From: a virus | DNA: 64,000 bases | Virus record (IMG/VR): IMGVR_UViG_3300044912_000492 | Location: 1 to 64,000 of that record | Direction: 5' to 3' (one strand) | Part shown: piece after piece, positions 12,025 through 23,789 of the stretch | Layout: each line of letters begins with the position of its first letter | Position numbering within the stretch: position 1 is the stretch's first letter | Program-made: the position numbers and the translations under genes | Notes under the pieces: generated by a model | What the model saw: the letters and a program-made list of their open reading frames with translations, nothing else | Database searches by the model: none | What the model was told of the DNA's origin: nothing

Positions 12025-12219
12025 ATGTATAGATTTTTAACTAACTTTCGATGGATTCGCAAATCAGCAGGAAAGAATTGGAGGCTTTTGGATTCTTCTT
12101 TTTTGGTTGATGGCAGTAAGCCTACTTGGTACAACTGGGATATTGTTGCAGCAGATCCTACCATGATGAAAATGATCAATGTTGGATATATCACCATTTT
12201 GAAGAGTGAGAGTTATTGA
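12025..12219 (+). CDS. hypothetical protein (64 aa)
   Basis: Stop overlaps the dcd start (TGATGA coupling). Confidence 0.4.
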   Translation: MYRFLTNFRWIRKSAGKNWRLLDSSFLVDGSKPTWYNWDIVAADPTMMKMINVGYITILKSESY

Positions 12220-12854
12220 TGACGCTAGTTGATTGGGAGATACAGCACAGATGCGGCGATCGCTCTTACGTTCCGCAATGGTGGAATTTAAAGGCATTGG
12301 CTTATAAATACTTTGTGCCATGCCCTAAAAATCCAATGATTGCACCATACGATCCAAGCTTAGTTAATGCTGCTAGCTATGATTTGGAGTTGGGCGACAC
12401 ATTAAAAATCGCTAGAATTGTCGAATACAAGACTGAGTATTTTGCTGTCAATGGCGTTACTCACTCAATGCGAGTCCCTCTAAAGCCTACGGAATGGATA
12501 GACATTGATTTATCAACTGGCTTTGAATATTGGATGCAAGATAACGATTTTATCTTGAGTGAAACAGAGCCGATCTTTCACATTCCCAGAAATGTATCCG
12601 CACAATTTGCACTCAAATCGTCAAGAGGTAGAGAAGGTTACGAACATGCATTAGCAGGATACATAGATCCCGCTTGGCATGACAGTAAGCTGACTGTTGA
12701 GCTTCACAAGATTAATCCTAATCCTGTGGTTTTGTACAAAGGCTTAAAGATTGGTCAAATCATTTTCACTAAAACTAATTCACAGCCGATCCATGCCTAT
12801 GATGTGCGTGGTAGATATAACAAAGACAGTCAAGTACAGGTGAGTAAGGGATGA
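12216..12854 (+). CDS. dcd: dCTP deaminase / dUTPase-superfamily enzyme (212 aa)
   Basis: NAASYDLELGD, LKSSRGREG, GYIDPAWHDSKLTVELHKINP and LKIGQIIF match the Dcd signature (kSS.aR.G; iDPGw.G..tlEl.N; igQ..f). Confidence 0.8.
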   Translation: MMTLVDWEIQHRCGDRSYVPQWWNLKALAYKYFVPCPKNPMIAPYDPSLVNAASYDLELGDTLKIARIVEYKTEYFAVNGVTHSMRVPLKPTEWIDIDLSTGFEYWMQDNDFILSETEPIFHIPRNVSAQFALKSSRGREGYEHALAGYIDPAWHDSKLTVELHKINPNPVVLYKGLKIGQIIFTKTNSQPIHAYDVRGRYNKDSQVQVSKG

Positions 12855-13093
12855 GCAAATGGACGTATCGAATCTCAAAGCAAACTCTCGCAAACGGTGA
12901 TGAGGTGTTTGCTATTCGTGAATTTTATCCCAATAGCAAGGGAGAGTTAACAAGCTGGAGTGCTAACGAGATTACGCCTGTGGGTTTGACGCTGGAGGAT
13001 CTAAAAGGTGAGTTAGCGCTGATTATGCAATGTTTGGATAAGGAAGTGATTGATATTGGAGGTGAAGATAATGGCACAGGACGAGTGGCTTAA
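12851..13093 (+). CDS. hypothetical protein (80 aa)
   Basis: ATGA-coupled to dcd. Confidence 0.5.
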   Translation: MSKWTYRISKQTLANGDEVFAIREFYPNSKGELTSWSANEITPVGLTLEDLKGELALIMQCLDKEVIDIGGEDNGTGRVA

Positions 13094-13655
13094 CATTGGA
13101 CTATGCGGCGCACATGGCACAGGCAAAACGACATTAGCGATCGCTTTGTCGCAAAAGCTAGGGATTCCGTATATTCCCATTGATGCGAGTGAAGTATTTA
13201 CAGATCATGGTTTTCACCCGTCCGATAAGCTTGATATTCGCACTCGCTTATTTTTGCAACAAAAGATTTTAGAGAAAGCTGAGAATATCTGGTTTGATGT
13301 TGATGAGCCTAGTTTTATCTGCGATCGCACACCTCTTGATATGGCTGCTTATTTGCTTGCTGATGTTGGCAATGGTGAGTTAGATAAGCGCACTCAAATT
13401 GAGATTATGGACTATTTGCAAGATTGCTTTAATGTCACGATTCAGTTTTTTGACAAAATTGTATTAGTCCCTCCTGCGATCGCTTTTGTTGAGCGTGAGT
13501 ACAAAGCGGCGATCAATCAGCCGTTAATCTTTAAGCTTCACGCTTTGCTTTTAGGAATGCTTAACACTTTGGATGTGTCTTACAAGGTGTTGCCACAAGA
13601 CTGCTTAGAGATAAGCGATCGCGTCCAGTTTGTTGAAGATTTTATGAGAGAGTAA
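13071..13655 (+). CDS. P-loop NTPase, nucleotide-kinase-like (194 aa)
   Basis: Start at ATG 13071 behind a GGAGGTG SD. Walker A GLCGAHGTGKTTLA; small AAA_28/dNMP-kinase-like size; sits between dcd and thyX. Confidence 0.55.
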   Translation: MAQDEWLNIGLCGAHGTGKTTLAIALSQKLGIPYIPIDASEVFTDHGFHPSDKLDIRTRLFLQQKILEKAENIWFDVDEPSFICDRTPLDMAAYLLADVGNGELDKRTQIEIMDYLQDCFNVTIQFFDKIVLVPPAIAFVEREYKAAINQPLIFKLHALLLGMLNTLDVSYKVLPQDCLEISDRVQFVEDFMRE

Positions 13656-13657
13656 CT

Positions 13658-14638
13658 ATGTTTCAGCCACAAGCCAAAATTATCGCTGATTCCGTTAATC
13701 CTTGCGGCGATCGCTTAACTACTTTTGTATTAACCTATCACCGTCTAGTGCATAGTGAATTTCTCACACATAGAATGCTAAGCAAGAATAGCTCTAGCAG
13801 CCGTGCGATACCAGTAGAAAAGATGATCGCTAAAGTTATTGAAGACAATGTATTCCCACTAGAATTTGGCAAAAATCAAAAGGGGATGACTGCAAAAGAA
13901 TCCGTAGATGATGCAGCGATCGCCGCATCTATGAAGACATGGCAAAAAGCGCGGCTAGATGCTATTGACCACGCATGGGCATTACATAAACAAGGTGTTC
14001 ACAAACAAGTCGTAAATCGCCTATTAGAGCCATTCTCTAGCATTACCGTAATCTGCACTGCTACCGAGTATCAAAACTTCTTTGCTCAGCGTTGCCATCC
14101 TGATGCTCAGCCTGAAATACAAGCTTTGGCGATCGCCATGCGTGAAGCCTATGAAGCAAGCGAACCAGACCAATTAGAAGACGGAGACTGGCATATACCA
14201 TTTTTGGGTGAAGACGAAAAAAACGATGATGGAGAATTTGTTGCTAGTGAAGCTGAATTGCAATGGCATAAAAACTTGATTGGCAAGGTCACAGACAATG
14301 ATTTTATCAAAATCGCAACTGGGCGGTGTGCTAGAGTTTCCTATCTCAATCATGATGGCATTCGCAACATTCAAGACGATATCAAACTGCATGATCGCCT
14401 ACTTAGCTCTAAACCACCGCACCTATCACCATTTGAGCATTGTGCTATGGCATTAGGTGAGAGCGAGGCAAGAGCTAACTTTGTTGGCTTTGAGTCATAT
14501 CGGTATCAGTTAGAGCATAACTACGAACCGACAGAAGCAGAAATAGCTATTTTGTCCGCTACTGAAGAAGAGATTTTGCAAATGCAAAGTAGATTTAAAG
14601 ATATTTCAATTGAAACATTACCAAGGCGCAAAAGATGA
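13658..14638 (+). CDS. thyX: ThyX-like flavin-dependent thymidylate synthase homologue (326 aa)
   Basis: THRMLSKNSSSSR fits the ThyX motif RHRxxSxxxxSxR except for the first R (here T). The protein is longer than typical ThyX. Confidence 0.65.
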   Translation: MFQPQAKIIADSVNPCGDRLTTFVLTYHRLVHSEFLTHRMLSKNSSSSRAIPVEKMIAKVIEDNVFPLEFGKNQKGMTAKESVDDAAIAASMKTWQKARLDAIDHAWALHKQGVHKQVVNRLLEPFSSITVICTATEYQNFFAQRCHPDAQPEIQALAIAMREAYEASEPDQLEDGDWHIPFLGEDEKNDDGEFVASEAELQWHKNLIGKVTDNDFIKIATGRCARVSYLNHDGIRNIQDDIKLHDRLLSSKPPHLSPFEHCAMALGESEARANFVGFESYRYQLEHNYEPTEAEIAILSATEEEILQMQSRFKDISIETLPRRKR

Positions 14639-14983: not shown

Positions 14984-15505
14984 ATGTATGGGATAGAAAC
15001 TGAAGACAAAACTACAGCTTTAGCTAGTGCGCTTAGTTACTGGATTTTTCGCTGTAGGGATAAGGCTAAAAGCCCTGCGATGGGACTTAAAACATGGGAA
15101 TACTTTCAGAGCAGTATCCAAAATGCTGCTATTCCCTCAAGAAGTATTGACGATTACATTGAGAATCTAGCCAAAAAACTAATCGTTGCACACCTCAATC
15201 CAAAAGAATGGACTCGCATAATTGCGCCTAATCAGGTGATTTTACGCGCTTCTCTTAATCCTGATGGCAGCATGGGAGACATTCAGCAAATTGATAGCGA
15301 TCAACATTTGCAGTGGCTAGGATGGCAAGACATTCTCAATTCGCTTAAGCCTGAAGGAATAGGCGATCGCCATATTCTCAATTTGTGCAAATCAAAACCG
15401 CATATTATTACTACCTATTGTCGCGTTCGATTTGAATGCGATCGCGCTTTGAATATTCCCGATGAACCAGAAAACACTCTAGATGTAGAGGCTAACAATG
15501 CTTAA
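14984..15505 (+). CDS. possible Cas11-like small subunit (173 aa)
   Basis: Call is positional only. The stop overlaps the cas7-like start by 8 nt, the composition looks helical, and the size matches type IV Cas11. No diagnostic motif. Confidence 0.3.
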   Translation: MYGIETEDKTTALASALSYWIFRCRDKAKSPAMGLKTWEYFQSSIQNAAIPSRSIDDYIENLAKKLIVAHLNPKEWTRIIAPNQVILRASLNPDGSMGDIQQIDSDQHLQWLGWQDILNSLKPEGIGDRHILNLCKSKPHIITTYCRVRFECDRALNIPDEPENTLDVEANNA

Positions 15506-16676
15506 TTACAATCCCCACGATCGCCATAATATCAAGCTACATTTGCAGATTACTTTGCTACAGCCACTCTCACATATCAGTGAATCGGTAGGCAATCAGA
15601 CGAATTTACGCACGATGAAAGTGACAGACTTAGAGGGGAATCCCTCTGAGGTGTTTTGCCTATCTGGCAACTCCCTACGCAATCGTATTTTAAGGCGATG
15701 CGGTATTGATTCCTTCCTATCTCAAATCGGTGTACAAGTATCGCCAACGATGCACCATGCTTTATTTTGTGGCGGCGCGATTGATGGAGGCACGGGCAAC
15801 GATTTGGATTTGGATAAAAAGATCCGTCAGCTTTTGCCATGCCTATCAGTACTAGGAACTGCAAAACCAAAAGGCTTGTTTGGTGTTGGTGATGCTCAGA
15901 TGGTGCATGGTCGGATCGCCGTTGGTGATGCGTATCTTGCCTGTGTAGAGAGCGCTGAATACATCTATCGACAATTTCCACCTGCGTTACCCATTGATGT
16001 TATTTCGGCGTTAGAGCAGATCGTTGATGGCAAGGATTTACAGCACTCGCAACGGGTTAATCAATGGCTAGGGATTGATACTAAAGTCAATCAATACGAT
16101 CTCAAGGCTTTGCTTGATGAGTGGCTCCCATACTTAGGTGAGAAGTTGCGATATTACTCCGATTGGCTTACCTACAGCCAAAAAACGCGGCGCGATTCTC
16201 TTCACGATCCTAACTTTGCTAAGCACTTGATTGGTGCTAGTCCACAGCCAAAAATCGGACAGGGCGATCTTTTTGTAGTAGCTGATGATTCCCCCAAAAA
16301 GAAGCCAGAAAAAGAGAAATCGCAACAAATGATCATGGGTAATTGGCTACTCCAAACAGGTGCTACCTTATACAGCTATTGGAGCGCAAACGTCACCAGA
16401 ATCGAAGAAGGATTTATTGCTGATGCGTTACTCAAGTTTGCTGAATCGCCATATTTAGGCGGTCAATCTGGAACAGGTTGCGGATTATGCTCTATGCAAT
16501 TTTGGTTTGAGACTGCTGACGGTGATCGCGGCGAGTTTATGACAATTACACCTCACGCGCAAAAACTAAGCGATCGCGCTTCTGAATCTCATGCAAGGTA
16601 TAAAGAATATCTTGAAGATTACAAAGGGTTTCTAGCTGATTCCAAGAGCGATATCAGGAGTTTACTTAATGGGTAG
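15498..16676 (+). CDS. csf2: RAMP protein, Cas7 (Csf2)-like (392 aa)
   Basis: - N-terminal strand ITLLQPLSHISESVG.
- SGNSLRNRILRR at aa 56-67 (compare GSSLRG.LR of Csm3/Cmr4/Csf2).
- C-terminal glycine loop PYLGGQSGTGCGL. Confidence 0.6.
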   Translation: MLNYNPHDRHNIKLHLQITLLQPLSHISESVGNQTNLRTMKVTDLEGNPSEVFCLSGNSLRNRILRRCGIDSFLSQIGVQVSPTMHHALFCGGAIDGGTGNDLDLDKKIRQLLPCLSVLGTAKPKGLFGVGDAQMVHGRIAVGDAYLACVESAEYIYRQFPPALPIDVISALEQIVDGKDLQHSQRVNQWLGIDTKVNQYDLKALLDEWLPYLGEKLRYYSDWLTYSQKTRRDSLHDPNFAKHLIGASPQPKIGQGDLFVVADDSPKKKPEKEKSQQMIMGNWLLQTGATLYSYWSANVTRIEEGFIADALLKFAESPYLGGQSGTGCGLCSMQFWFETADGDRGEFMTITPHAQKLSDRASESHARYKEYLEDYKGFLADSKSDIRSLLNG

Positions 16677-16787: not shown

Positions 16788-17333
16788 ATGAACACCAGCC
16801 AAATCGCACAAATCGCAACCTCACTCAATGTCTCCCCAAACCAAATCAAAAGAGCCGAAGAATGGGCAAACGTTTTGTTCGTTGTGGTTGTTGGCAAGGG
16901 CTCTCGATTCGTATCCAAAAAGGTATTAAAAATGGAAATGACCCAAATGACCCGTTCGCAATTAGCCAAGAAGATCGCTGCCGATCTAGATTGTACTACC
17001 AAAATCTGGGAAAAAGGCGGCAAAGTCCGAGTTTATCTTTCCCATCGCGGCAAAGATTACGGATTTGTTGAAATCACCGCTAAGGGCGTAGAATTTGCGC
17101 TCACGGGCTATGCAAATAACGCTTATGGCTCCGATATCCGCAATTCGGCTGAGGGCATTGAAATCAACGAACCATCAGCAGTTGTAGGCGATGTCCGCCG
17201 CCTTACCAGTGAAGAAGCCGACCAACTAGCGGCAATGTCTCGCGGCAAAGCTAACGACACCGAACGCGCTCTAAATGCCATGTATGGCAGAGGCGGATGG
17301 GATCATTGGGATCGTGAAGATTACGAAGGTTAG
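16788..17333 (+). CDS. hypothetical protein (181 aa) between cas7-like and cas5-like genes
   Basis: Longest of three overlapping frames here; no motif recognised. Confidence 0.5.
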   Translation: MNTSQIAQIATSLNVSPNQIKRAEEWANVLFVVVVGKGSRFVSKKVLKMEMTQMTRSQLAKKIAADLDCTTKIWEKGGKVRVYLSHRGKDYGFVEITAKGVEFALTGYANNAYGSDIRNSAEGIEINEPSAVVGDVRRLTSEEADQLAAMSRGKANDTERALNAMYGRGGWDHWDREDYEG

Positions 17334-17563: not shown

Positions 17564-17760
17564 TGCCAGACCCTACCCCTCGCAATCCCAAAGGGGCAGG
17601 GCGCAAGCCTAGCCCCGACGAACCGAAACCCACCCAGAGTTTTCGCTCCGATCCAGACATCAAAACCTATCTTGCCACCATCCCTACAGGCGAAAAAACC
17701 AGAATCATCAATCAAGCAATCAGAGAGTATATATTGAGGCAAAACCAATCACATGATTAA
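17563..17760 (+). CDS. small DNA-binding protein, GRP-motif family (65 aa)
   Basis: GAGRKPSPDEPKP arm followed by IPTGEKTRIINQAIREYI; paralogous in architecture to 7540..7752. Its stop overlaps the cas5-like start. Confidence 0.5.
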   Translation: MPDPTPRNPKGAGRKPSPDEPKPTQSFRSDPDIKTYLATIPTGEKTRIINQAIREYILRQNQSHD

Positions 17761-18436
17761 TCTTCAAATAATCGCGCACATGGCAACGCCTCTCTTTGCC
17801 TATGATGATTGGTCGCCTAGCTTTGATGCTCTCATTGAATATCAATTGCTCGACTCACTAGGATTGATAGAGCCTAATCCCACAGAGGCAAGCATTATTA
17901 AAAATCTGCCATTGCTATTTGAGCAAATGCCGATCGCCCGAAAGATGCTAAATGGTGAATGGTATTGGGCGGTAAGCTCACCTCATTACATTGAAAATCA
18001 TCAGCAAATTTCGCAATATGTAAAGCGCTGGGATAAGCAAGAATTACACCTTGATTTAAAAGGGAAACGCGGTAAATTTAGTGGTAGTGAAGGGCATTTT
18101 AAAGCTTATAAACTACCTAAATACAACCGCGAAATGCAGACTATCCACTGGTTTTGTATTGGCGATGCAAATAAGATTAGTCAACTGATTCTAAATGTTT
18201 CGCACCTTGGCAAGAAGCGATCGCAAGGGTGCGGACAAGTCCATAAATGGGAGGTGCTACCGTTTGAGCATGATTGGCATTTGTGGCGCGGCGATAGTTT
18301 AGCCAGACCTATACCAGTTGGGATGATTGAGCCGCCTCAAGCTATTAATATGATGAACTGGGGATGGCGACCGCCTACATGGTTGGCTGCTAATAAATCT
18401 ATGTGCTATATGCCAACGGACAACGTATGTCGATAA
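17753..18436 (+). CDS. csf3: RAMP protein, Cas5 (Csf3)-like (227 aa)
   Basis: Glycine-rich loop HLGKKRSQGCGQV near the C-terminus; N-terminal strand LQIIAHMATPLF. Size and cysH adjacency fit Csf3, but it could alternatively be Cas6-like. Confidence 0.5.
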   Translation: MINLQIIAHMATPLFAYDDWSPSFDALIEYQLLDSLGLIEPNPTEASIIKNLPLLFEQMPIARKMLNGEWYWAVSSPHYIENHQQISQYVKRWDKQELHLDLKGKRGKFSGSEGHFKAYKLPKYNREMQTIHWFCIGDANKISQLILNVSHLGKKRSQGCGQVHKWEVLPFEHDWHLWRGDSLARPIPVGMIEPPQAINMMNWGWRPPTWLAANKSMCYMPTDNVCR

Positions 18437-19176
18437 CTTTTGGTAGTGGACTAAATGCTAGATGGCTAACACGTAAACGCGACAATGCGATCGCCCTAAT
18501 TACTGAATGGTTAAAGCTTTGCGATTATCAAGTTTACGGCTCTATTTCGGGCGGCAAAGATTCGCTAGTTATGGCGCATCTGATTAGAGAAGTTTATCCA
18601 GATTGTCCGTTTCTATGGGTAAATCAAGGACATTTAGCCGAATGGGATGATTGCGTAGAATTGCTTTATTACCTACGAGATGAACTCAAATGGAACATCA
18701 TAGAACTATGCCCACCATTGGGATTGATGCAGCTTTACCGCAAATTAGGTATGAGTTTTGATGGTCAGTTCAATGCTCTTGATAAAAAACAATGTCATGA
18801 ACTTTTGCTATATCCGCTAAATGAATGGGCGGAAATGCATAACGCAAAAGGCTATGCATGGGGACTAAGGCAAGAGTCTAGAGGGCGCAAAGAATATTTG
18901 CGGTCTAACGGTTTGCTTTACACAAAGAAAGATGGAATCGTTATTTGCTCTCCTATTGGCTTTTGGAAAACTGAGGATATTTGGCATTACATAGATTGGC
19001 AAAAGCTACCCTATGCCACTATTTACGATGTCGAAGGGCGCATGACTTTCCGTAATGGATGCCCTATCGATACAGCGCTTTCTAACTGGGGGCGTATGGC
19101 ACACCTAAGAAAGAATTACCCCAAGATTTATTTTGAATTTGCTGAGCTATTTCCAGAGGTAAAAAACTATGCTTAA
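18427..19176 (+). CDS. cysH: CysH-like PAPS-reductase-family PP-loop enzyme (249 aa)
   Basis: PP-loop SISGGKDS (SGGxDS). ATG 18427 overlaps the cas5-like stop by 10 nt (alternative start 18403). Confidence 0.75.
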   Translation: MSITFGSGLNARWLTRKRDNAIALITEWLKLCDYQVYGSISGGKDSLVMAHLIREVYPDCPFLWVNQGHLAEWDDCVELLYYLRDELKWNIIELCPPLGLMQLYRKLGMSFDGQFNALDKKQCHELLLYPLNEWAEMHNAKGYAWGLRQESRGRKEYLRSNGLLYTKKDGIVICSPIGFWKTEDIWHYIDWQKLPYATIYDVEGRMTFRNGCPIDTALSNWGRMAHLRKNYPKIYFEFAELFPEVKNYA

Positions 19177-19810
19177 TTTTGACGATATCTCTATTGTGAT
19201 TCGTACCGTATCAGCACATAGAATGCACTTACTGCAAAGATTGCAACAACAATTGAAGCCTCTTGATTTTGTCATTTCTGATAGGTCGGACAGACAAAAC
19301 ACCTATGCTGATGATTGGTTTAATGCAATGCGTAAAGGTCAAGATCAATCTAAAAAATGGCTAATCCATCTAGAAGATGACGCTTTTCTGTCACCTGATT
19401 GGAAGGTAAGCGTATTAAACCTTTTAAATCAAATCCCTTTAGATATTAAGGTCTGTTCGTTTTATTCTGGGAAAAGAATGAAGCAAGAATTTGAACATTT
19501 ATCTAAACCACATTGGGAATACTTGCGTGGATCGTCTTTCTTTATGCACCAATGCACGACTTGGAAAATGGAGTACGTTGATTATTTTGTTGATGGAATA
19601 AAAAGCCAATGGGCTTCACATCCTGAATACAGAAAAATTGATTTTATTGATCAAGCCTTAATGGATTTTATGGTACAAAAAAAAGAAAAGTTTGCGCGAG
19701 TTTTCCCTAGTTTAGTCCAACACACAGGCGACAAAAGTTTGATTGGTCATGCAAACAGTAAAAGTCGTCAATCATCTAGTTTCACCTATTTTTATGGAGA
19801 TACACCTTAA
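19169..19810 (+). CDS. glycosyltransferase-like protein (213 aa)
   Basis: ISIVIRTVS N-terminal strand and IHLEDDAFLSPDW (an EDD DxD-type motif), as in GT-A/GT25-like enzymes. Overlaps cysH by 8 nt. Confidence 0.4.
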   Translation: MLNFDDISIVIRTVSAHRMHLLQRLQQQLKPLDFVISDRSDRQNTYADDWFNAMRKGQDQSKKWLIHLEDDAFLSPDWKVSVLNLLNQIPLDIKVCSFYSGKRMKQEFEHLSKPHWEYLRGSSFFMHQCTTWKMEYVDYFVDGIKSQWASHPEYRKIDFIDQALMDFMVQKKEKFARVFPSLVQHTGDKSLIGHANSKSRQSSSFTYFYGDTP

Positions 19811-20283
19811 TGCCATTCATTAAAAAAGGAACATTGCTAGAAGATTGGCAGACAGCTAATCCTATAACTTTATTAGGCGATTTAGAATTGCCAGAATTGC
19901 CATCACTAAATAATTTTATTCAAAAAGAATATGGCGATCGCAACGGTGTAAAAGCAATCAATTACAACCGCAAAGACAAGAGCGCTCCTTATTTTGTTTG
20001 TTGCCGTGGCGCATGGAGAATGCACACAGATCCAGGGTACAACCGATATGCACATCATGTAGTTTTAATGACTTGTAATGCAAAACTAACGGGCTATGCC
20101 GATAATTATGTTGTTAGAGTAGGACAAGCTTTAATTATTGATTCTCATTCTCCCCACGCTTTAATGTCAATCGATCCTACTGAAGAAACATTTTTTTTAT
20201 CTTTAGCTCAAGATTTAACAGAAAAAAATACTAATTTCATTAAAACAATTGACATTGAGAAATATTTAAATGAAATCAAATAA
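19810..20283 (+). CDS. possible cupin / 2OG-Fe(II)-dioxygenase-like protein (157 aa)
   Basis: WRMHTDPGY (HxD) and a downstream IIDSHSPHAL (distal His) suggest a facial-triad arrangement. TAATG-coupled to the GT-like gene. Confidence 0.3.
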   Translation: MPFIKKGTLLEDWQTANPITLLGDLELPELPSLNNFIQKEYGDRNGVKAINYNRKDKSAPYFVCCRGAWRMHTDPGYNRYAHHVVLMTCNAKLTGYADNYVVRVGQALIIDSHSPHALMSIDPTEETFFLSLAQDLTEKNTNFIKTIDIEKYLNEIK

Positions 20284-20944
20284 CTGCTATCTTTGCGCCG
20301 CCCCTAACGCGACAAAACCTTTAGCCCTTAAGAACACCTTTACAAGTCATAATGCCGCTAGATGTCCTGATTCTAAGTATCTATGCGATCGCTGTGCATG
20401 GTGTATTCCGTTAAGGGCTTTTTATTGGAATGAAACCAAGGGTAAGTACAGCGCGATCTATTCCCGCAACTGGTCATGGTTACTTTCTGCTAATGATGCT
20501 TACGGCTCTTATCCTAAATTTGGTAATCAACATACTGAAGGGAAAGACACGCTAGAGATAGTTGATCGCCTTCCTACTCGCTCTCAAATTAGGGCATGGT
20601 TGCTTGATCCACCAAAGCCGCCCTTCACTATTTGCATTGCCGAATCAGGGCAAAAGCATATATTACCGTGGGCACTAGAAGCCAATAATCGCGATTATTT
20701 TCCAGTGCAATTTGAGCTTGATACTTTGCACATTTATCGATCTGCTTTTACCCATTTGCTCACACGATATGAAGAGCTTATGGCTATGGGATTTAGCAAA
20801 ACTGAAATCAATAGCGGTAACTATCGAAGCGACAAATTAGCTAAGTGCATCAGTGAATATGCATCATGTGAGGCTGTGATTGCTGCTAAACGTGGTAATC
20901 GGTTGCTGGATTTGGTAAGCTATGTCGCAAAAGTATCAGAGTAA
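20270..20944 (+). CDS. csf1: Zn-finger protein, Csf1 (small Cas8)-like (224 aa)
   Basis: N-terminal CYLC (aa 6-9) plus C-x6-CDRCAWC cluster (aa 33-45). Size and operon context fit type IV Csf1. Confidence 0.4.
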   Translation: MKSNNCYLCAAPNATKPLALKNTFTSHNAARCPDSKYLCDRCAWCIPLRAFYWNETKGKYSAIYSRNWSWLLSANDAYGSYPKFGNQHTEGKDTLEIVDRLPTRSQIRAWLLDPPKPPFTICIAESGQKHILPWALEANNRDYFPVQFELDTLHIYRSAFTHLLTRYEELMAMGFSKTEINSGNYRSDKLAKCISEYASCEAVIAAKRGNRLLDLVSYVAKVSE

Positions 20945-20963
20945 GATATGGCAGACAGTAAAC

Positions 20964-21677
20964 ATGAAAAACTGTATATTTTGCAAGAAAGAATTTGATG
21001 AAGCTAAAACAAAACGGCTTTGCTGTACTAGATCATGTGCAGCAAAGTTTTCCACAGAAAAGAAAGGCGGATCAGCATGGAAACAAGAAGAGATCGAATA
21101 TCTTGAAGATAATCTTGGTGTTTTACCTTTTCCTGTATTGGTTAAATCCTTTAAGAAATGGTCTAAAAAACAAGGCTACTCAGAACGGACAGATACTGCG
21201 ATAGAAGTTCAAATCCATCGCATGACATCTAACTCGCCCTTAAGCCGCAAATGCACTGAAGACAATTTTACTGTGTACGAACTGTCGAGAGGGTTAGGCT
21301 TATCAATGGATCGGGTTCGCTTATTTGTCCGCAATGGGAAATTGCAACCCCGCAAAATTGCCAGAAATCAGAATGCAGTTAAACGTAAAGACGCGATCGC
21401 CTTGGTACTAAACAATCCATCGTATTTTGCTAACTGCGATCGCGATAATCTGTTTTGGCTATTGGAAGATAACAAACTGGTTGAGAAAGTGAAAAGTGTG
21501 GAACCATCAACTAGAGGTTTTCGCCGTGCTGTACGTTGTTATGCTCCTGATGGAATTAGAGAATATTCAGGCGTAAAAGAAGCAGCTAGGGCTAATTTTG
21601 TTACGCATAACTGTATATCCCAAGCGATCGCTAGGGGTGGCAAAAGCGCTGGTATAAAATGGGAATGGGTGGAGTGA
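20964..21677 (+). CDS. DNA-binding protein with NUMOD1/IENR-like C-terminal module (237 aa)
   Basis: ATG 20964 (MKNCIFCKK) lies 19 nt after the csf1-like stop. N-terminal Cys cluster; C-terminal YSGVKEAARANFVTHNCISQAIARGGKSAGIKWEWV. Confidence 0.5.
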   Translation: MKNCIFCKKEFDEAKTKRLCCTRSCAAKFSTEKKGGSAWKQEEIEYLEDNLGVLPFPVLVKSFKKWSKKQGYSERTDTAIEVQIHRMTSNSPLSRKCTEDNFTVYELSRGLGLSMDRVRLFVRNGKLQPRKIARNQNAVKRKDAIALVLNNPSYFANCDRDNLFWLLEDNKLVEKVKSVEPSTRGFRRAVRCYAPDGIREYSGVKEAARANFVTHNCISQAIARGGKSAGIKWEWVE

Positions 21678-22052: not shown

Positions 22053-22171
22053 GATTCTGGTAATGCACTGAAAGCTATATGTATTAACAGATTGAGGCGA
22101 AAAAGTGGTAAAATATTAGAAGCGAATCGCAAGGTTTGAAGGTGCGATCGCTGAATCCACATTACCTAAAC

Positions 22172-23065
22172 ATGGTAGATAACATGGCTAAAGATATTAT
22201 TACATTAGATCGTAACGGAGTTCAGGTTGAGATCGAAGGGATCAAGGTTGACTTACCTATCAAAGCTATAAGGGATCTCCCTTTGGCTGGGGATGTCTAT
22301 TTGATTAAATGCTGTCAGTTTTACAAAATTGGCGCGTCTGCACAGATTAAAAAGAGGATCGCCGCTATCCAGTCTATCGTCCCGTTTGATGTTCAGATCA
22401 TTGATTCTTTTCTTTCGTGTGATGTTTTCCAAGACGAGAAAAAGATACATCGTTTATGTTCTGAGTTTAATGTCAAAAATGAGTGGTTTCTTTTGCCAGA
22501 TTCTTTTGTTAAAAATAGGGCAAGATGGTTTAAACCGTCTGTATCTCCAATCCCACAAATCAAACAAGGGATCGCCAAATATATGAAAGCGGTTGACGAT
22601 GAAAGCGGCGTTTTCTCAGAGCTAACAGGAAGTTTAATTTATAGACCTAAGCCCGACAAAGAACTCATGAGAAATTGTTTTTTACTAAACACTGAGATTA
22701 GTACTCAGATTATTGCGGCTCATTTCAATGTTGATGTAGCCGAAGTCCATAACAATCGCTATCGTGGCTTGTATCGCAAAAACGCAACTCAACTCAGAGA
22801 AGAAGCAGGGCTTAAAAAGTCTGAGACTCCTCTGGATCGCCTATCTGCTTATGACTTGAATTTAAACAGCTTGGCTAACCAAATGGCTTTGATGTCTGGT
22901 GATTCTGGTAAGGTGTTAGATGCGGCGATCGGGTTGCGTCAATTGCATGAGCAAACTGTCGGCAAACCATTAGAGCCAACATGGGAAGAAAAGCATTTAA
23001 GACCTAATCAAGCTAAAGCGATCGCCTATTCCCCTGAATACCAAACTGAGCTACCAGTAAGCTAA
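22172..23065 (+). CDS. T5orf172 (GIY-YIG-like) domain protein (297 aa)
   Basis: DVYLIKCCQFYKIGASAQIKKRIAAIQ...EKKIHRLCSEFNVKNEWFLLP matches the T5orf172/MUG113 pattern. First ATG is at 22172 (the track start 22136 is non-ATG). Confidence 0.6.
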   Translation: MVDNMAKDIITLDRNGVQVEIEGIKVDLPIKAIRDLPLAGDVYLIKCCQFYKIGASAQIKKRIAAIQSIVPFDVQIIDSFLSCDVFQDEKKIHRLCSEFNVKNEWFLLPDSFVKNRARWFKPSVSPIPQIKQGIAKYMKAVDDESGVFSELTGSLIYRPKPDKELMRNCFLLNTEISTQIIAAHFNVDVAEVHNNRYRGLYRKNATQLREEAGLKKSETPLDRLSAYDLNLNSLANQMALMSGDSGKVLDAAIGLRQLHEQTVGKPLEPTWEEKHLRPNQAKAIAYSPEYQTELPVS

Positions 23066-23141: not shown

Positions 23142-23789
23142 ATGCCAAAGAAAAAAGCTAAGCTCTCAGATTTTCGTATTCAAGAAAAAAATCTCAATAA
23201 ACACAAACCCCGTGGTATGGGACAGCTATCCAATATCATCTCAAAGGAAGGATGGCAGTCTGCAATCACTGTCGCGAACGACAATCAAGCATTTAGCGGT
23301 AGTGCAAGATTAGAGACAGCACAAGAGCTATTTGGTGATGAAGCAGAGCCTATCGTATTTGATATTGATGGTACACGCCCCGTAATCCTTAGACGGGTTG
23401 ATATTCCCACTGCTGACGATCCAAGGGCTATCAGATTAGGCATTGCAGATAATCGCATTAGTGAGGTTAACTACGATTTAGATATTGATCTACTACAAGA
23501 GACAGCGCAAATAATCGACATCAGCGATCTATATTTTGACGATGAACTTGCAAAATTAGCAGAGCAAAAGCAGGAAATCATCGACTATCAAGAGCCTGAT
23601 TTTCTCAAGTTTTCAGATAACAATGACTTACCAGCATACGCAACCGATCGCAGTGGTGGCAATAAGCAACCTATACCCATAGTCGTTGGTAGTCGCACTA
23701 TGCAAAGATGGAATGAATATAAGGAAAGTATTGGGATAAAAAATGATACGGCGGCGTTTGAAATGCTGCTAGAATCTCAAGAGATCTAA
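23142..23789 (+). CDS. ParB N-terminal (ParBc) nuclease-like domain protein (215 aa)
   Basis: NLNKHKPRGMGQLSNIISKEGWQSAITV...FSGSARLETAQEL...LGIADN pattern. Confidence 0.55.
   Translation: MPKKKAKLSDFRIQEKNLNKHKPRGMGQLSNIISKEGWQSAITVANDNQAFSGSARLETAQELFGDEAEPIVFDIDGTRPVILRRVDIPTADDPRAIRLGIADNRISEVNYDLDIDLLQETAQIIDISDLYFDDELAKLAEQKQEIIDYQEPDFLKFSDNNDLPAYATDRSGGNKQPIPIVVGSRTMQRWNEYKESIGIKNDTAAFEMLLESQEI

Follow-up and report, generated by a model that had tools for sequence, protein, structure and literature searches.

In the published surveys consulted on type IV CRISPR-Cas, cysH is the only accessory gene given for subtype IV-B; its role is unassigned, epigenetic modification being suspected, and accessory genes for a glycosyltransferase (GT) or a cupin are not mentioned (PMC7038947, PMC8175902), which agrees with the remark, made in a preliminary description of the DNA considered here, that such enzymes were not known from canonical type IV-B loci. 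One published type IV survey reported Cas6 in only 12 type IV-B loci. Ever since the definition of the subtype it has been asked what the type IV-B systems and their near-invariant CysH partner do. A second group of described systems, the cassettes of the IbrA/IbrB type (IbrA/IbrB and YbdN/YbdM of E. coli), combines a PAPS_reduct+DUF3440 protein with a ParB-like protein. The locus described here lies in the first 64 kb (positions 1 to 64,000, referred to below as the window) of the IMG/VR virus record IMGVR_UViG_3300044912_000492, a complete record of 75.5 kb with direct terminal repeats. Within a type IV-B-like cassette of this virus, two genes, predicted to encode a glycosyltransferase and a small cupin, are inserted between the cysH-like gene and csf1:

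19169..19810, plus strand: GT-A-fold glycosyltransferase of 213 amino acids (aa), the first gene of the inserted pair (phrog_854, AlphaFold2 (AF2) model, fold matches, invariant residues)
19810..20283, plus strand: minimal double-stranded beta-helix (DSBH; cupin) protein of 157 aa, a putative Fe(II) hydroxylase, the second gene of the pair (AF2 model, fold matches, invariant residues)
19173..20280, plus strand: insertion of about 1.1 kb relative to the sister phages (junction comparison with L065 and L066; guanine-plus-cytosine (GC) content)

Judged from gene order, the GT-cupin pair is a recurrent cargo of a cassette that groups a PAPS-reductase-family (IbrA-like) gene with ParB-like genes beside the terminase gene in uncultivated phages. 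From this family of phage IbrA/ParB cassettes the mobile module may have been captured by a type IV-B cassette, its probable chemistry being hydroxylation followed by glycosylation, with DNA as the most probable target; the whole of this reading is given a probability of roughly 0.5. The new element here is the joining of the GT-cupin cargo to a type IV-B CysH.

The ORFs (open reading frames) of cysH (18403/18427-19176), the GT (19169-19810), the cupin (19810-20283) and csf1 (20270-20944) overlap successively by 8, 1 and 14 nt, and a check of the translations bore out these coordinates and overlaps, as well as the motifs IHLEDD and MHTD...SPH, as they had been given in the preliminary description. 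For comparison, relatives were drawn from a Csf2-centred scan. In the nearest of them, L065 and L066, whose Csf2 proteins are 96-97% identical to that of the window, cysH overlaps csf1 by 8 nt and neither a GT nor a cupin gene is present. In the insert-free phages cysH ends in ...AACTATGCCTAA, and csf1 begins at the ATG inside that sequence. In the window it is the GT gene that begins at the same ATG, the cupin gene stops at the TAA that matches, and csf1 starts at a different, new ATG, which lies 11 nt upstream of that TAA, within the 3' end of the cupin gene. The insertion between the CysH-like gene and csf1 is precise, with translational coupling kept at both ends. Because the GC content of the insert is 34.8% vs 43.4% in the flanking cas genes, the pair is taken to have been gained in the window lineage and not lost from the sisters; the low value indicates a foreign origin and a recent acquisition. 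Sister phages with and without the 1.1-kb insert provide natural controls.

Among the csf loci compared here the pair is present in some and missing from others. The related phage L003 has the order cas11-csf2-csf3-cysH-GT-cupin-csf1, as in the window, and cysH-GT-cupin is found in L002. A divergent lineage represented by L004 (27% Csf2 identity) also holds the pair, in the arrangement csf1-cas11-csf2-csf3-CysH-like (267 aa)...ParB-PAPS reductase-GT-cupin, where the PAPS reductase is a DndC-like protein of 355 aa. The insert is absent from L065 and L066, and also from L085-L087, relatives of L004 that carry a csf-cysH cassette. From these comparisons the pair appears as a mobile cargo module, not as a core part of the Cas operon.

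The distribution of the pair in other viruses was followed by an IMG/VR pattern scan with a sub-alignment of the cupin family, which returned 59 loci; at 70% identity these group into 26 cupin clusters, at 50% into 9, and the cupin ORF was called in 53 of them, to which the following counts refer. In 44 of the 53 loci the GT gene directly precedes the cupin gene, in 42 the gene that directly follows the cupin encodes a protein of about 390 aa with PAPS_reduct+DUF3440 (IbrA-like), and 50 of the loci contain ParB-like genes. In Pfam searches the partners of the module proved to be PAPS_reduct+DUF3440 and, on either side, ParB_N; a Toprim-DnaB primase-helicase is encoded upstream and TerL downstream, the commonest order being ParB - small ORF - GT - cupin - PAPS reductase - ParB - TerL. 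No csf gene was detectable by phmmer in about 50 other loci with the GT-cupin-PAPS-reductase trio. Since the sister phages have csf-cysH without the pair, and since elsewhere the pair occurs mostly without csf, its constant partner is considered to be the PAPS-reductase-family gene and not csf.

The preliminary description had proposed that the pair and the PP-loop enzyme form a three-enzyme set. With a PP-loop enzyme of the PAPS-reductase family as its third member, such a set has strong support from the gene order of about 50 divergent phage contigs and from the GT-PAPS reductase cluster of the cultured Microbacterium phage Hendrix (L090). At the end of its genome (NC_047977.1 93630-97753), Hendrix encodes a GT homologue, gp154 (35% identity, 7e-21), together with a glucosyltransferase (gp155), a methyltransferase (gp156), an N-acyltransferase (gp157) and a PAPS reductase (gp158). 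Of the two families the GT alone reaches a cultured phage, namely Hendrix, and a tblastn search of GenBank phages gave no match for either window protein nor for two divergent cupins. It is also worth recording that in about 20 of the viral loci (e.g. L014:4908-6423, minus strand), many of them on marine phage contigs, a divergent Amidoligase_2 (1e-32) and GGACT/AIG2-like pair adjoins the ParB-GT-cupin-PAPS reductase-ParB module.

The sequence of the GT contains WLIHLEDDAF. Its match to Pfam Glycos_transf_2 (PF00535) reaches 16.5 bits, under the gathering cut-off of 23.3 bits, and the sole above-threshold family match is to phrog_854, 'glucosyltransferase', at 9.6e-10. Across 44 aligned homologues, for the most part at 17-29% identity, D71 of E69-D70-D71 is invariant, positions 69 and 70 are acidic or Gln in all sequences, and F98, S100, D161, P180, H185, S190, R200 and S202 are invariant as well. 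The AF2 model built on this alignment has a pLDDT (predicted local distance difference test) of 87.8, and its fold matches (VIA) include POMGnT1 with Z 15.7 over 181 aa, GnT-I with 14.4 and Mimivirus R655 with 14.1, and further ColGalT1/LH3, Fringe, PBCV-1 A64R, STIV A197 and Mimivirus R699. In total 106 chains match at Z of at least 8, nearly all of those listed having GT-A or nucleotidyltransferase folds, at a sequence identity to the fold neighbours of just 9-15%. The best E value obtained with Foldseek is 4e-6, and among the atlas leads the nearest named clusters are 'nucleotide-diphospho-sugar transferase' and GT25. The EDD motif we take to be the GnT-I form of DxD. The GT-A fold put forward in the preliminary description is confirmed by the structure prediction, and the ORF at 19169-19810 is assigned, on the strength of the model and the conserved residues, to metal-dependent GT-A-fold glycosyltransferases with a GnT-I-like EDD motif.

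For the second protein of the pair, whose sequence contains MHTD...DSHSPH, searches against Pfam, PHROG, NCBIfam, PADLOC and the sequences of the PDB gave no match, and a profile search of PDB sequences with the whole family returned nothing. By exhaustive phmmer, 35 cupin representatives were collected at E of 0.001 or less, nearly all of 160-190 aa, and in an alignment of 38 sequences, reaching down to 18% identity, H72, D74, R79, G95, D111, S114 and H116 are invariant. Pfam searches with the 38 relatives yielded weak matches only, to Cupin_2 in four (best E 0.008) and to Asp_Arg_Hydrox in one (E 0.09). One close homologue is labelled Microcoleus sp.; no relatives, bacterial or prophage, were found in 185,579 GTDB species genomes, and no fused forms that could serve as Rosetta-stone evidence were found, the latter being weak evidence. 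These cupins would represent a virus-only family of minimal HxD...H proteins for which neither Pfam nor PHROG holds a model.

The AF2 model of the cupin (pLDDT 90.6) is a double-stranded beta-helix with eight core strands. Its best and longest fold matches are to proline 3-hydroxylase (1e5r; Z 9.3 over 127 aa) and proline cis-4-hydroxylase (4p7x; Z 8.3 over 135 aa), accompanied by a 168-aa non-haem hydroxylase of nucleoside-antibiotic biosynthesis (Z 8.1), by many small cupins at Z of about 8, by ALKBH6 and the viral collagen prolyl 4-hydroxylase (P4H) vCPH at Z 7.6, and also by ALKBH7, AspH and PHD. Foldseek on the model gave cupin and 2-oxoglutarate (2OG) oxygenase matches, the BFVD search gave weak 2OG-oxygenase-like matches, and the nearest named cluster among the atlas leads is '2OG-Fe(II) oxygenase'. 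In the model H72 closes the strand 69-72, D74 is located in the next turn and H116 begins the strand 116-120, so that the predicted placement of H72-x-D74...H116 is canonical for a facial triad. The cupin fold with an HxD...H triad had likewise been anticipated in the preliminary description, which named wrong folds or unconserved motif residues as the findings that would speak against its proposal; the models show the anticipated folds and the alignments show the motif residues conserved in both families.

The genes around the pair that bear on its interpretation are as follows:

14984..15505, plus strand: type IV Cas11-like small subunit (PADLOC PDLC01696, 5.8e-14)
15498..16676, plus strand: Csf2 (Cas7) (PADLOC PDLC01724, 6.7e-43; TIGR03115, 7e-6)
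17753..18436, plus strand: Csf3 (Cas5) (PADLOC PDLC01727, 4.5e-40; TIGR03116, 2.1e-15)
18427..19176, plus strand: CysH-like PP-loop ATP pyrophosphatase (CasCysH) (PF01507, 1.5e-14; phrog_424, 6.3e-22; SGGKDS motif)
20270..20944, plus strand: Csf1 (Cas8-like) (PADLOC PDLC01721, 1.5e-25; TIGR03114, 1.3e-10)
23142..23789, plus strand: ParB-like protein (phrog_620, 5.6e-11; phmmer matches to 12 module-linked ParB genes, best 1e-26)

The Cas context, recognized earlier as a cas-like operon, is accepted because PADLOC models match cas11, csf1, csf2 and csf3; the NCBIfam matches to csf1, csf2 and csf3 are weaker than those of PADLOC. The cysH-like gene, with PF01507 and the SGGKDS motif, is the sole PAPS_reduct gene in the 75.5-kb genome, and in its short product (249 aa) DUF3440 was not detected. 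No direct-repeat array was found in the 12-28 kb part of the window, an Rfam search gave no match, and the search for Cas6 families was empty, as was its positive control, so that the absence of cas6 is weakly supported. By these gene assignments the locus is a phage-borne, array-less, type IV-B-like cassette consisting of cas11, csf1, csf2, csf3 and a cysH-like gene, in keeping with a subtype marked by a neighbouring cysH-like gene and by the lack of an array, of cas6 and of dinG. The ParB-like protein encoded farther downstream has homologues among the ParB_N genes next to the GT-cupin-PAPS-reductase module of other phages.

In the proposed sequence of events the cupin, through a presumed oxygenase activity, would hydroxylate a substrate, and the hydroxyl so formed would then be glycosylated by the GT; this substrate, on which the PP-loop enzyme and also the ParB-like protein would act, would most probably be phage DNA before packaging. 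The resulting mark could play an anti-restriction role, guarding the phage DNA against host nucleases. In gene position CasCysH stands where IbrA-like enzymes stand elsewhere. DNA is favoured as the target because it is what DndC, SspD and BrxP, characterised relatives of PAPS reductase from conflict systems, act on (PMC12839542), and because phage Fe/2OG thymine dioxygenases require ParB-like partners as activators or adjoin GTs (bioRxiv 10.1101/2025.08.14.668559). Two further reasons are that the cassette sits at the replication/packaging boundary and that the module enzymes GT and cupin are mildly basic, with a median isoelectric point of about 8.6.

Several points weigh against this reading. 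For the GT as for the cupin, the substrates of the closest structural neighbours are proteins, amino acids or glycans and not DNA. The triad geometry of the cupin is read from motif position and secondary structure only. The Arg or Lys about 10 residues after the distal His, which in enzymes of the RxS type binds the C5 carboxylate of 2OG, is not conserved; at the strand start after the distal His about a third of the sequences have Lys and the others Tyr, Phe, Trp or Asn, the window protein having Phe. Because this canonical 2OG-binding residue is not conserved, the cupin is not classed as a proven 2OG oxygenase; its model is that of a putative small Fe(II) hydroxylase, in which the invariant R79, five residues after the Asp, may take the role of the 2OG-binding Arg/Lys. 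No match of the cupin to any Pfam model of 2OG oxygenases (2OG-FeII_Oxy families, Tet_JBP) was obtained, and no TET/JBP structure is among its top 50 fold matches, a ranking in which distant kin may be passed over. To our knowledge it is also smaller than any characterised DNA dioxygenase. Finally, the neighbourhood counts rest on crude ORF calling and clustering of our own.

The same structural neighbours point to a different target, namely a protein: the cupin would be a hydroxylase of the prolyl/lysyl/aspartyl type, and the GT would glycosylate the hydroxy-amino acid of a virion protein, another phage protein or a host protein. Hydroxylation combined with glycosylation of proteins has precedents in LH3/ColGalT1 acting on collagen, in P4H/Gnt1 acting on Skp1, and in the collagen-modifying enzymes of Mimivirus. 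Over its full length the cupin is best matched in fold by proline 3-/4-hydroxylases, AspH, the viral collagen P4H and PHD, and the GT by protein/glycan GT-A enzymes including ColGalT1/LH3, PBCV-1 A64R and Mimivirus R655/R699; in Hendrix the GT homologue is accompanied by another GT and by a methyltransferase and an acyltransferase, a set that could also build a glycan. However, collagen-like (G-X-Y) repeats are absent from the window and almost absent from the related loci, the pair is constantly accompanied, beside the terminase gene, by proteins of the ParB-like and PAPS-reductase families, of which the characterised relatives have DNA as their substrate, and the fold neighbours mirror what has been crystallised, at 9-15% identity only; a protein target, though rather unlikely, is a serious rival to DNA. 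It is quite improbable that the cupin is instead a metal-dependent or His-based sugar or sugar-nucleotide isomerase or epimerase (of the type of phosphomannose/phosphoglucose isomerase (PMI/PGI), RmlC or FdtA) making the unusual donor sugar for the GT, as might be supposed from the small cupin PMI/PGI enzymes among its fold matches (7zvy, Z 8.6; Pyrococcus PGI), from the missing canonical 2OG-binding residue and from the pairing of cupins with GTs that is common in sugar pathways. The invariant HxD...H has the form of a facial triad, whereas cupin isomerases have HxH...E...H, and RmlC and FdtA have His/Tyr dyads. It is with 2OG hydroxylases that the fold alignments are longest (127-135 residues), and wherever the module was scanned it held no further genes of the sugar-nucleotide type (RmlA/B-like).

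The third alternative, which continues the suggestion of the preliminary description, couples the pair to the Cas proteins: CysH, the cupin and the GT would modify a nucleic acid bound or targeted by the Csf ribonucleoprotein, in an RNA-scaffolded or RNA-guided manner. Its appeal lies in the translational coupling of the pair within the csf operon, in the occurrence of csf genes together with PAPS reductase, GT and cupin in two divergent lineages, those of the window and of L004, and in the open function of type IV-B systems, whose cysH is suspected of epigenetic modification in the literature (PMC7038947, PMC8175902). The pair is nevertheless missing from the csf-cysH cassettes of the closest relatives L065 and L066 and of L085-L087, about 50 other loci carry the trio without a phmmer-detectable csf gene, and the foreign GC content indicates a recent acquisition; the common denominator is the PAPS-reductase gene and not Csf. 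Functional coupling to a Cas scaffold is not upheld by these comparisons and seems quite unlikely. A related conjecture, somewhat less probable still, is that CasCysH does the work done by the IbrA-like PP-loop enzyme in the phage ParB/IbrA modification cassettes and that the Csf ribonucleoprotein directs or scaffolds a covalent modification of nucleic acid, in which activation by the PP-loop enzyme would be extended here by hydroxylation through the cupin and glycosylation through the GT; if this were true, the phage type IV-B loci would be RNA-scaffolded modification systems, not interference systems.

The plus-strand block to which all these genes belong extends from 12.2 to 27.8 kb. In order, it contains genes for a dCTP deaminase, a P-loop kinase and ThyX, then cas11, csf2, an ORF of 181 aa, csf3 and the cysH-like gene, followed by the GT and cupin genes, csf1, an ORF of 251 aa, phrog_7595, a GIY-YIG/T5orf172-like gene, the ParB-like gene, a radical-SAM gene, which has a small paralogue on either side (two in all), and TerL. 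The dCTP deaminase, the P-loop AAA_28/thymidylate-kinase-like protein and a long ThyX (326 aa) are encoded at 12216-14638 (plus strand), directly 5' of cas11, and the deaminase and kinase genes are syntenic with cas11 in most relatives. The deaminase, kinase and thymidylate synthase upstream could suggest a pyrimidine-hypermodification cluster instead of CRISPR; this was rejected, the synthase being of the ordinary ThyX type and the csf genes real. The 181-aa ORF (16788-17333, plus strand) has no family match and separates csf2 from csf3, which directly adjoin in L003; its homologue follows csf1 in L003, csf2 in L064 and a methylase-like ORF in L067, and it looks like a mobile, homing-type ORF moving about within the cassette. 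The 251-aa ORF (20922-21677, plus strand) begins inside csf1, 23 nt before the end of that gene, and gives weak MerR-like and homing-endonuclease hints, with no convincing family match; phmmer detected no counterpart in the L003 locus. The ParB-like gene is separated from the cassette by a gene (22136-23065, plus strand) for a 309-aa MUG113/T5orf172 (GIY-YIG-related) protein, which is probably a mobile nuclease as well.

Other genes occupy the region around cysH in further relatives from the scan. In L083 (13138-16360; Csf2 56% identical) and L069 (12928-14130; Csf2 92% identical) cysH is directly followed by an ORF of Coq4-like type and by a clearly recognizable Cas6 (PF09559, 7e-51 and 7e-34, respectively), and just upstream of csf1 in L083 there are two 38-nt repeats 71 nt apart, which may constitute a one-spacer mini-array. 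A Cupin_2 protein (7e-9) is encoded in the slot after csf3/cysH in L078 (12528-12887), and in L067 (11809-12423) the usual place of cysH is taken by an ORF of 204 aa whose match (4e-8) is to the C-terminal portion of N6_N4 DNA methylases.

In comparison with the type IV-B CRISPR-Cas systems, the window has all five signature genes (csf1, cas11, csf2, csf3 and cysH-like), an array not having been found; it differs from them in being phage-borne and in the order cas11-csf2-(mobile ORF)-csf3-cysH-GT-cupin-csf1. As to the IbrA/IbrB-type cassettes, the GT-cupin pair abuts their PAPS_reduct+DUF3440 and ParB_N genes next to TerL in about 50 viral contigs, and in the window, too, a PAPS_reduct gene is located directly upstream of the pair, while 2.9 kb downstream, still ahead of TerL, there is a gene for a homologous ParB-like protein. 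Unlike in those cassettes, the PP-loop enzyme of the window is the short CysH-like protein of type IV-B (249 aa, no DUF3440 detected), encoded among csf genes, and csf1 and four other ORFs stand between it and ParB. CysH thus occupies here the same neighbourhood role as the IbrA-like PAPS reductases of a very common phage cassette, with the same swappable cargo of GT and cupin, which suggests that CasCysH may belong to a nucleic-acid modification pathway.

At the level of the individual enzymes, the GT resembles GnT-I/POMGnT1 (GT13) and ColGalT1/LH3 in its predicted GT-A fold (Z 14-16) and in the EDD motif as in GnT-I; unlike these, it is a minimal soluble enzyme of 213 aa, with 9-15% identity and under Pfam thresholds. 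The cupin shares with the proline 3-/4-hydroxylases (P4H-like, PF13640) the DSBH core and the placement of the metal-site residues, with HxD where one strand ends and the distal His where a later strand begins (Z 8.3-9.3), and differs from them in the lack of a Pfam match and of a conserved Arg/Lys after the distal His. In the base J pathway a thymidine hydroxylase, JBP1/2, works together with the glycosyltransferase JGT. The logic of an Fe-dependent DSBH hydroxylase combined with a GT would be common to the window pair, to base J and to the phage TET/5mYOX systems, as would the ParB-like partners found in phage DNA-modification operons (10.1101/2025.08.14.668559). Unlike TET/5mYOX proteins, the window cupin has no Tet_JBP match and no conserved 2OG-binding Arg at the known positions, and if the cupins act on DNA they would be, at 157 aa in the window, smaller than the phage 5mYOX DNA dioxygenases of about 280-300 aa.

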